From the NCBI RefSeq assembly GCF_058153355.1, contig NZ_CM177019.1: a DNA stretch of 64,000 bases. One strand, given 5' to 3'. Every line of letters begins with the position of its first letter. Position 1 is the stretch's first letter. Under the pieces are notes generated by a model. The model searched no databases. It saw nothing but the letters and a program-made list of their open reading frames with translations, and was not told the origin of the DNA. Below are positions 32,008 to 33,459 of this stretch, piece by piece. A program made the position numbers and the translations under genes.

Positions 32008-32020
32008 CTGCCGACGGGCG
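32008..32020. repeat. 13-bp target-site duplication, left copy (CTGCCGACGGGCG)
   Basis: Identical 13-mer directly flanks both ends of the IS4 element (second copy at 33447-33459). Confidence 0.85.
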
Positions 32021-33446
32021 TAATGCCAGTCAGTTAAGCAACTGACTGGCTCTTTTTCGGGGCTGTGGGGTATTTCCAGGGCCTCTCCTTTACCACTCTC
32101 GGGAAGGCCCTTTCCCTTCTTGTCGGTAATTTCACAAGTTGTCCCATACTTGCAAGATCGCGCATCAGCTCCGGTATACGTCCCGGTGAAGCGCCCTGCA
32201 ATGTCATCAGCATTCTCATCACCATTCCGCATGATTCTGAGAAACTCAGTTGATTCGGCCAGTAACCTTTCAGATGTTCCGCCATTTTAATCATCTGATA
32301 TCTCACCAGATTATAAGCCAGTAAGACACCCCACAGCTCTTGCTCCACAAGCTCCGGCTTTTTACTTCTCAGCGTCAGCCTGCTCAGTTGCATCGTCTGT
32401 TTTATCTCCCTGTATCCCAGTTCGATTTCCCAGCGATGACTGTACAGATCCGCCATTTCTCCTCCGGGGAAGCGCATGGCGTCCGTCATCGACGTCAGCA
32501 GATGGCAGACTTTTCCTTTGCGCGTCACGGTCAGCAGGCGGGCTGTCACTTCATTTCCCAGTCCCGGCCACTTTTTTCGTGCCTGCGGGCTGGTTTTCAG
32601 CTTCACCAGATGATCGCCTTTACCCAGTTTTCTGATCTCTTCATATTGCGCTCCCTTTCTGAGAGGTATCATCCAGTGGCGGTGTTCTCCCGCCAGGCTC
32701 CAGGCATTTAACAGTCCCAGTGAGTAATAACCTTTATCCATTAACGTCAGAGTGTTATCGCCGGTTTGTTCTATAAGTTGCTCAGCAAGCTCATTTTCGC
32801 TGTTCTTCATCGTGCCGAAGGCTGCAGCCGTCAGCAGATGGCTGGTCAGTTCCATCTGGCAGACCATTTTGACCTGCGGGTAGAGCGCCGGGTTCCCGGC
32901 ATGTGTCTGGCGGGGGAAGGCTGCATCGTTCTCTGGTGTATCCGGTGTGCGCCAGAACACACCATCGATGGCCAGCAGGGTCAGGCCGCACCAGTGCGGA
33001 TGCGGCGTGGCGTTATGCCAGAGCTGCGCTGTTTTCGTGAACACGCGGCGGACAGCCTCACTTCCCAGGCGCTGGCGGGCCTGAATAACGGCACTGGGGG
33101 CAACGAAGGGGCGATTGCCCGGCAGCATGATGTCCAGGCGATTCACAATCTGGTGAAGAGGTTCTTTACGCTCAAGCGCCATGCCAACAATACACCAGAC
33201 CATCATTTCGAGGGGAAGACGGCGCTTGCGTAGCGTTACAGTACCTGATTCGGCAAGGCAACGAGAGATGAGTTCGGGGTCGAGGTAATCCCCCAGAGAA
33301 GTCAGTGGGTTACGCAGAGAATCGTAACGGGATACCAGATCAAGAGCCTGTCCAATGTGCATAAAAAAATCCGGAAACAAGTGAGCGTTTCCGGATTCTT
33401 ACACAGCCACTGGATCGGTCAACTGATCCTTAACTGATCGGCATTA
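32021..33446 (-). mobile_element. IS4 insertion sequence (1426 bp, intact)
   Basis: Imperfect terminal inverted repeats TAATGCCAGTCAGTTAAG… and TAATGCCGATCAGTTAAGG… (read from each end); a single DDE transposase ORF; length of 1426 bp agrees with IS4; flanked by a 13-bp direct repeat. Confidence 0.9.
32034..33362 (-). CDS. insG: IS4 transposase (DDE family)
   Basis: 442 aa starting [30 protein letters not shown]…; recognised as IS4 InsG. The ORF track start MFPDFF is 6 codons upstream. Confidence 0.9.
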
Positions 33447-33459
33447 CTGCCGACGGGCG
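33447..33459. repeat. 13-bp target-site duplication, right copy (CTGCCGACGGGCG)
   Basis: Direct repeat of 32008-32020, immediately outside the IS4 right end. Confidence 0.85.

Follow-up and report, generated by a model that had tools for sequence, protein, structure and literature searches.

Two questions are raised by the interval between glmS and the long polar fimbriae (lpf) operon in the DNA studied here: why an insertion sequence came to lie at precisely this position, and what it does to the genes on either side. The window, i.e. the whole stretch of 64,000 nucleotides that was analysed, is Escherichia coli chromosome; its best matches among complete E. coli genomes reach 99.1% over the upstream 20 kb and 98.4% over the downstream 24 kb, and it has the gene order atp, glmUS, lpfABCD (O113 type) and pstSCAB-phoU. 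On the plus strand the locus reads glmS, a 23-bp spacer, CTGCCGACGGGCG, IS4, a second CTGCCGACGGGCG, GCCTTTTTTAT, ~270 bp of AT-rich DNA and lpfA; 36 bp separate the glmS stop codon from IS4. The features are compiled in Table 1.

Table 1. Features of the glmS-IS4-lpfA interval, in window coordinates, with the basis of each assignment
Feature	Position	Strand	Description and basis
glmS	30155-31984	+	609 aa; open reading frame, annotated in homologous loci
Left target arm AAAAGGG	32001-32007	+	A-tract, then the bases that open the stem of the split terminator; location of the predicted Tn7 insertion point
Left target-site duplication CTGCCGACGGGCG	32008-32020	+	13 bp; sequence comparison
IS4	32021-33446	-	1426 bp; 99.9% match to E. 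coli copies, 16/18 terminal repeats
IRR-end hairpin	32025-32058	+	11-bp stem (hairpin 32025-32050), loop AAGC, then TCTTTTT; terminator scan and folding
IS4 transposase gene	33362 to 32034	-	442 aa and stop; sole open reading frame of the element, uninterrupted
IRL-proximal hairpin	33363-33400	-	AAUCCGGAAAC...GUUUCCGGAUU, then U7; directly 5' of the transposase AUG
Promoter-like site	33395-33422	-	TTGACC, 16 nt, AAGAAT, upstream TG; reads into the transposase gene; consensus match only
Right target-site duplication CTGCCGACGGGCG	33447-33459	+	13 bp; perfect copy of the left one
Right target arm GCCTTTTTT	33460-33468	+	with the right duplication copy, a weakened 5-bp hairpin and T6
lpfA	33729-34301	+	O113-type long polar fimbria major subunit, intact; open reading frame and homologous-locus annotation

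The element is IS4 itself and no mere relative, as every defining feature that can be tested was found in it. Full-length IS4 copies of complete E. coli genomes match it at 99.9%, and 2,686 of the 5,426 genomes are carriers, with 5,468 IS4 places in all. Against the K-12 MG1655 element that is annotated 'insertion sequence:IS4', 3 of 1426 positions are different. The terminal inverted repeats, ~18 bp long and beginning TAATGCC, agree between the two ends at 16 of 18 positions, and the orientation places IRR (transposase 3' end) at 32021 toward glmS and IRL (5' end) at 33446 toward lpfA. Definition of the IS4 family includes a DDE transposase with the motif Y(2)R(3)E(6)K (PMC2266710). Here, the transposase matches the Pfam families Nterm_IS4 (3e-33) and DDE_Tnp_1 (9e-32), its translation carries the Y-x2-R-x3-E-x6-K motif as well as the DDE motif, it departs from K-12 InsG by 2 amino acids, and the single DDE reading frame with its YREK motif is accompanied by a duplication of about one helical turn, as in the family, and within the 11-14 bp typical of IS4. 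The first-pass annotation had called this an intact 1426-bp IS4, and the K-12 reference of the same length with only three nucleotide differences, the uninterrupted reading frame and the presence of both ends bear this out. Integrity of the reading frame and ends, along with an identical protein in at least ten copies of another genome, suggests a copy that is active in transposition.

The perfect 13-bp direct repeat was likewise confirmed as a target duplication. In-silico removal of IS4 and one repeat copy yields AAAAGGGCTGCCGACGGGCGGCCTTTTTTAT, which is present verbatim between glmS and lpfA in E. coli 2020CK-00188, where the 13-mer is single-copy. It was at the empty site of relatives that the first-pass annotation expected its duplication claim to fail if it were wrong, and the 2020CK-00188 allele matches the reconstruction exactly. 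The empty site ATATAAAAGGGCTGCCGACGGGCGGCCTTTTTTAT consists of a GC-rich 8-bp stem with one G-U pair, a GACG loop and T6, and the stem is extended by A-U pairs as the A-tract pairs with the U-tract; it folds at -19.3 kcal/mol (z = -4.8), a stability reached by none of 200 shuffles. A GC-rich hairpin with a U-tract, starting 20 bp past the glmS stop, is found where a glmS terminator is to be looked for, and judged by folding the empty site resembles a bidirectional Rho-independent terminator. It differs from the K-12 glmS terminator, the sequence downstream of the stop codon being unrelated in lpf-O113-type strains. The claim that IS4 entered the hairpin of the glmS terminator stands. That hairpin is not notably imperfect, the stem being regular with a single G-U pair. 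As for the age of the insertion, the perfect duplication, the intact reading frame, the near-identity to other copies and the existence of an extant empty-site allele support the earlier view that the event is recent.

Why this terminator was chosen can be deciphered from where IS4 lies elsewhere. The consensus AAA-N20-TTT for IS4 targets, with the pheST attenuator terminator as an example, is said to have been put forward by Mayaux and colleagues (Gene, 1984). For comparison, 35 distinct IS4 sites with their flanks were taken from other loci and genomes. They are surviving insertions sampled by convenience and include the terminators after metK, fumB, opgH, bamD, bipA, adhE, eno, rpoD, degS/mdh, ssb and pdxK/crr. 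When oriented by IS4, the flanks of these sites are symmetric, with an A-tract on the left and a T-tract on the right, each 3 bases away from a duplication of 11-14 bp. Adenine occupies position -6 at all 35 sites and position -5 at 33, and thymine occupies +4, +5 and +6 at 31, 31 and 34 of them, whereas the duplication length varies (13 bp, n=14; 12 bp, n=12; 14 bp, n=6; 11 bp, n=3). Between the tracts, a hairpin core of -8 kcal/mol or below was found in 26/35 sites, a terminator share that selection against gene-disrupting insertions could inflate; the 9/35 sites without a hairpin still keep the A/T arms, several of them being inside genes and one being the K-12 site. The latter (K-12 MG1655, 4502090-4503515) is atypical, with a 12-bp duplication ATCTTGGTTCTG, a core folding energy of 0 and weak A/T arms. 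The AAA-N20-TTT rule is thereby re-derived from the 35 sites and agrees with a remark in De Palmenaer et al.

Two other descriptions of the target were considered and discarded. An asymmetric target with only the right T-tract conserved is at odds with the left arm, whose base counts after reverse complementation are almost equal to those of the right one. A rule of orientation, with IRR always toward the upstream gene, is contradicted by the occurrence of both orientations at the eno, bamD, metK and glmS sites; orientations at unidirectional terminators in the unbiased sample were 5 versus 3, and the early appearance of such a rule was an ascertainment artefact of the first loci.

A symmetric arm matrix was built from the 32 non-glmS sites and used to scan the IS4-less window at every position with each duplication length from 11 to 14 bp. 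The occupied position, taken with its actual length of 13 bp, ranked first among 250,114 combinations at 20.6 bits, and the runner-up reached 16.7 bits. The latter match, at ~61903-61915 (gaaaaaaggc GGTCAACTGACCG cccttatttt), has a hairpin of -13.9 kcal/mol and is unoccupied. Since the site ranks first by the target matrix, nothing particular to glmS, Tn7 or lpf is needed to explain its location. The location is set by the target preference of IS4, a point that, like the repeated use of the site, was absent from the first-pass annotation.

The same terminator has been used by IS4 more than once. Four complete genomes (21AR0303, STEC17-190, E10 and FDAARGOS_944) have an IS4 that agrees with that of the window in insertion base and orientation; in two more, CUVM3 and CPww7 (at ~2500-3930 of the loci compared), the element is reversed and flanked by a 12-bp duplication, TGCCGACCGGTG. 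Occupancy is therefore 6 of ~1,928 genomes with the junction (~0.3%), and 'hot spot' is to be read as recurrent, not frequent; the lpf-O113-type junction is empty in ~1,922 complete genomes, closest relatives included. CUVM3 and CPww7 are pig isolates from Thailand, in which glmS read-through would enter IS4 in the sense direction of the transposase gene. The duplication is CTGCCGACGGGCG in the window, CTGCCGACCGGCG in 21AR0303 and CTGCCGACCGGTG in STEC17-190, E10 and FDAARGOS_944; both copies are identical within every carrier genome and 1-2 positions differ between lineages. Identity within genomes together with difference between genomes indicates independent insertions into different alleles and no drift after one old insertion. 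The IS4 copies themselves differ by 2-12 nt between events, the window copy being 2, 8 and 4 nt away from the three carrier groups, and FDAARGOS_944 has the same flanks as STEC17-190, yet its IS4 is 12 nt different. The IS4 of one carrier locus (L002) is identical to the opposite-orientation copies. Carrier loci L002 and L004, identical in IS4 and flanks, probably share one event. Counted from these comparisons, there are at least five independent IS4 insertions into the glmS-lpf terminator, in both orientations. The FDAARGOS_944 copy is 1425 bp long and frameshifted, and the lpfC next to it has an internal stop and a pseudogene annotation. In the searchable literature, no paper was found on IS4 at glmS/lpfA or on the recurrent use of this terminator.

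With regard to transcription of glmS, the insertion was earlier expected to abolish glmUS termination. The native terminator is indeed split, and the left remnant folds at -7.5 kcal/mol, no better than shuffles, and is without a U-tract. However, the adjoining end of IS4 supplies an equally stable hairpin followed by a U-run: the IRR hairpin begins 5 bp into the element, reads in the glmS direction and folds at -18.7 kcal/mol (z = -4.8). As a candidate replacement terminator predicted from sequence, with an interrupted U-run (UCUUUUU), it indicates that termination has probably been shifted rather than lost, by ~30 nt downstream. At the opposite end, the IRL-proximal hairpin (-20.9 kcal/mol, z = -6.6) also faces inward and is terminator-like. 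It was not among the results of the consensus terminator scan; it lies between the promoter-like site (33422-33395) and the transposase AUG. With such structures at both ends, IS4 would be predicted to halt transcripts that run in from adjacent genes, whichever way it lies. A search of Rfam gave no RNA family inside or adjoining IS4. It is tempting to regard IS4 as a dedicated 'terminator-swapping' element, which finds terminators by their A/T arms and replaces them by its own end hairpins, though we hold this to be a tentative and rather doubtful proposal. Were it true, insertions of this kind would be nearly cost-free in either orientation, and the glmS-lpf terminator would be a recurrent landing pad overlapping the Tn7 zone, two unrelated transposons arriving at the same 30 bp through different modes of recognition. 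No explicit statement that IS4 end hairpins replace the terminator that the element splits was found in the searchable literature.

The region downstream of glmS is also the attachment site of Tn7, and an altered Tn7 target had been suspected. According to Mitra et al. 2010 (PMC2918618), attTn7 needs only the TnsD site in the coding end of glmS, the sequence at the insertion point being irrelevant, and Tn7 inserts ~20-25 bp past the glmS stop. The conserved TnsD-binding sequence is present at the glmS 3' end, in its last ~36 bp, with 2 differences from K-12 that are both coding and outside the insertion, and IS4 does not touch it. The Tn7 insertion point is predicted at ~32005-32009, 12-16 bp left of IS4. 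The suspicion is thus not supported, and we infer that attTn7 is unchanged and that Tn7 should remain able to enter between glmS and IS4. For users of mini-Tn7 in lpf-O113-type strains, attTn7 can be expected to be usable, with Tn7 landing in that interval. No tns genes are present here.

Toward the fimbrial operon, an action of the outward-facing IS4 end had been proposed. The end of the duplication is separated from the lpfA start (33729-33730) by 270 bp of AT-rich DNA, and the lpf genes are intact. Neither a promoter scan nor inspection by eye gave any plus-strand (outward) or hybrid promoter-like site in the last 100 bp of IS4 facing lpfA, and all plus-strand promoter-like matches are in the native AT-rich DNA. 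Moreover, the right remnant of the terminator (33447-33468), a 5-bp hairpin with T6 that folds at -8.3 kcal/mol and no better than shuffles, intervenes between IS4 and lpfA. These observations speak against the proposal.

Taken together, a preference-driven insertion of IS4 into the glmS-lpf terminator, recurrent and probably near-neutral, is in our judgement very probably the explanation of this locus. A functional IS4 copy would have moved by cut-and-paste into the Rho-independent terminator between glmS and the O113-type lpf operon. Its transposase favours a symmetric target in which an A-tract and a T-tract stand ~20 bp apart, usually around a GC-rich palindrome, and cutting of the strands 11-14 bp apart around the dyad would give rise to the target duplication. 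The glmS-lpf terminator, AAAA-GGG-[CTGCCGACGGGCG]-GCC-TTTTTT, is the best such site in the window, and glmS transcripts would be expected to end ~40 nt inside the IRR end, with the insertion probably being near neutral.

It could be argued instead that the insertion abolishes termination of glmUS transcription, disturbs attTn7 and exposes the regulatory region of lpf to read-through or to transcripts derived from IS4. The split native hairpin with its poor left remnant and the closeness of IS4 to lpfA (270-283 bp upstream) are in line with such an outcome, but the stable hairpin and TCTTTTT just inside IS4 in the glmS direction, the lack of a plus-strand promoter-like site at the lpfA-facing end with a hairpin remnant and T6 beyond it, and the dependence of attTn7 on a TnsD site that lies in glmS, with its insertion point left of IS4, make it improbable. 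Comparably improbable, and marginally more so, is retention of the insertion as an adaptation, for instance through stability of the glmS mRNA 3' end or through insulation or altered expression of lpf. Recurrence in unrelated lineages would be expected under positive selection too; target preference alone, however, accounts for the first rank of the site, both orientations occur, occupancy is as low as ~0.3%, and one copy is already frameshifted next to an lpfC pseudogene.

Descent of all carriers at glmS-lpf from one ancient, vertically inherited insertion would account for the base position and orientation shared by four genomes and for the identity of L002 and L004 in IS4 and flanks. It is nevertheless very unlikely in view of duplications that differ at 1-2 positions between lineages and always match within a genome, IS4 variants up to 12 nt apart, an L002 element equal to the opposite-orientation copies, two genomes with reversed orientation and a 12-bp duplication, and an empty site in ~1,922 genomes including the closest relatives. 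Insertion sequences are common sites of misassembly, and a repeated IS4 copy might have been misplaced at a contig join; with a perfect 13-bp duplication that is single-copy in the empty allele and the same architecture in six independent complete genomes, such an artefact is scarcely credible.

Besides these features, several observations were made in the window and the compared genomes. The sRNA STnc410 was assigned by Rfam to 28382-28539 on the minus strand (185 bits), just upstream of the glmU reading frame (28623), and the same strand bears a 16S rRNA (479-2020), a tRNA (235-307) and StyR-44 (55-153). The segment at ~43900-49000 corresponds by homology to positions 10470-15266 of a compared locus (L044), for which type III effector genes (one a pseudogene) and a gene for a pentapeptide-repeat protein are annotated between phoU and yieH; the segment is AT-rich and gives several weak matches to the IS4 target matrix. 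In strain GN02350, an IS4 downstream of rraA has a typical terminator half-site on the rraA side and no matching duplication opposite, which points to recombination between IS4 copies that led to a rearrangement or a deletion. Genome GCA_900448835.1 has at least ten IS4 copies with a transposase identical to that of the window, mostly in terminators and some in genes (bcsG and a DUF4049 gene), and looks like a case of IS4 expansion.

The significance of the locus is mostly one of annotation, as a standard IS4 lies at a position explained by a known preference; the element was already known and its target choice here agrees with reports since the 1980s. The additions are modest, namely the recurrent use of the glmS-lpf terminator and the IS4 end hairpins as putative replacement terminators. 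As the target is a recurrent one, presence of IS4 at glmS-lpf is a poor marker of shared ancestry. The re-derived matrix, having ranked the true site first in the window, could be used to flag IS4-prone terminators.

In comparison with known systems, the window copy is like the K-12 IS4 (insG; ISfinder IS4, IS4 subgroup) in length, in 1423/1426 bases, in its 442-aa transposase with Nterm_IS4 and YREK motif, in its terminal repeats and in an 11-14 bp duplication. Only the location differs, the K-12 copy having a 12-bp duplication and a target without a hairpin, and the window copy lying in the glmS-lpf terminator. The classical IS4 sites, such as the pheST attenuator terminator, have the same symmetric A/T tracts ~20 bp apart around a palindrome and an insertion centred on the dyad, and the site in the window is another terminator of this kind.

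Tn7 at attTn7 is comparable in landing within the same ~30-bp stretch downstream of glmS, and Gay et al. 1986, in the form cited in PMC2918618, have it inserting classically inside the glmS terminator. The difference resides in recognition, since TnsD reads the coding end of glmS and directs insertion at a fixed distance, whereas IS4 reads the A/T-flanked palindrome itself. Insertion sequences that favour extragenic palindromes, by which gene disruption is avoided, include IS1397 and ISKpn1 in BIMEs and ISRm22, ISPpu9 and ISPa11 in REPs (PMC1525189). With these elements, of which ISRm22 also belongs to the IS4 family, IS4 has in common a taste for intergenic palindromic DNA; their targets, however, are repeated families, while those of IS4 are unique terminator-like palindromes set by A/T arms.
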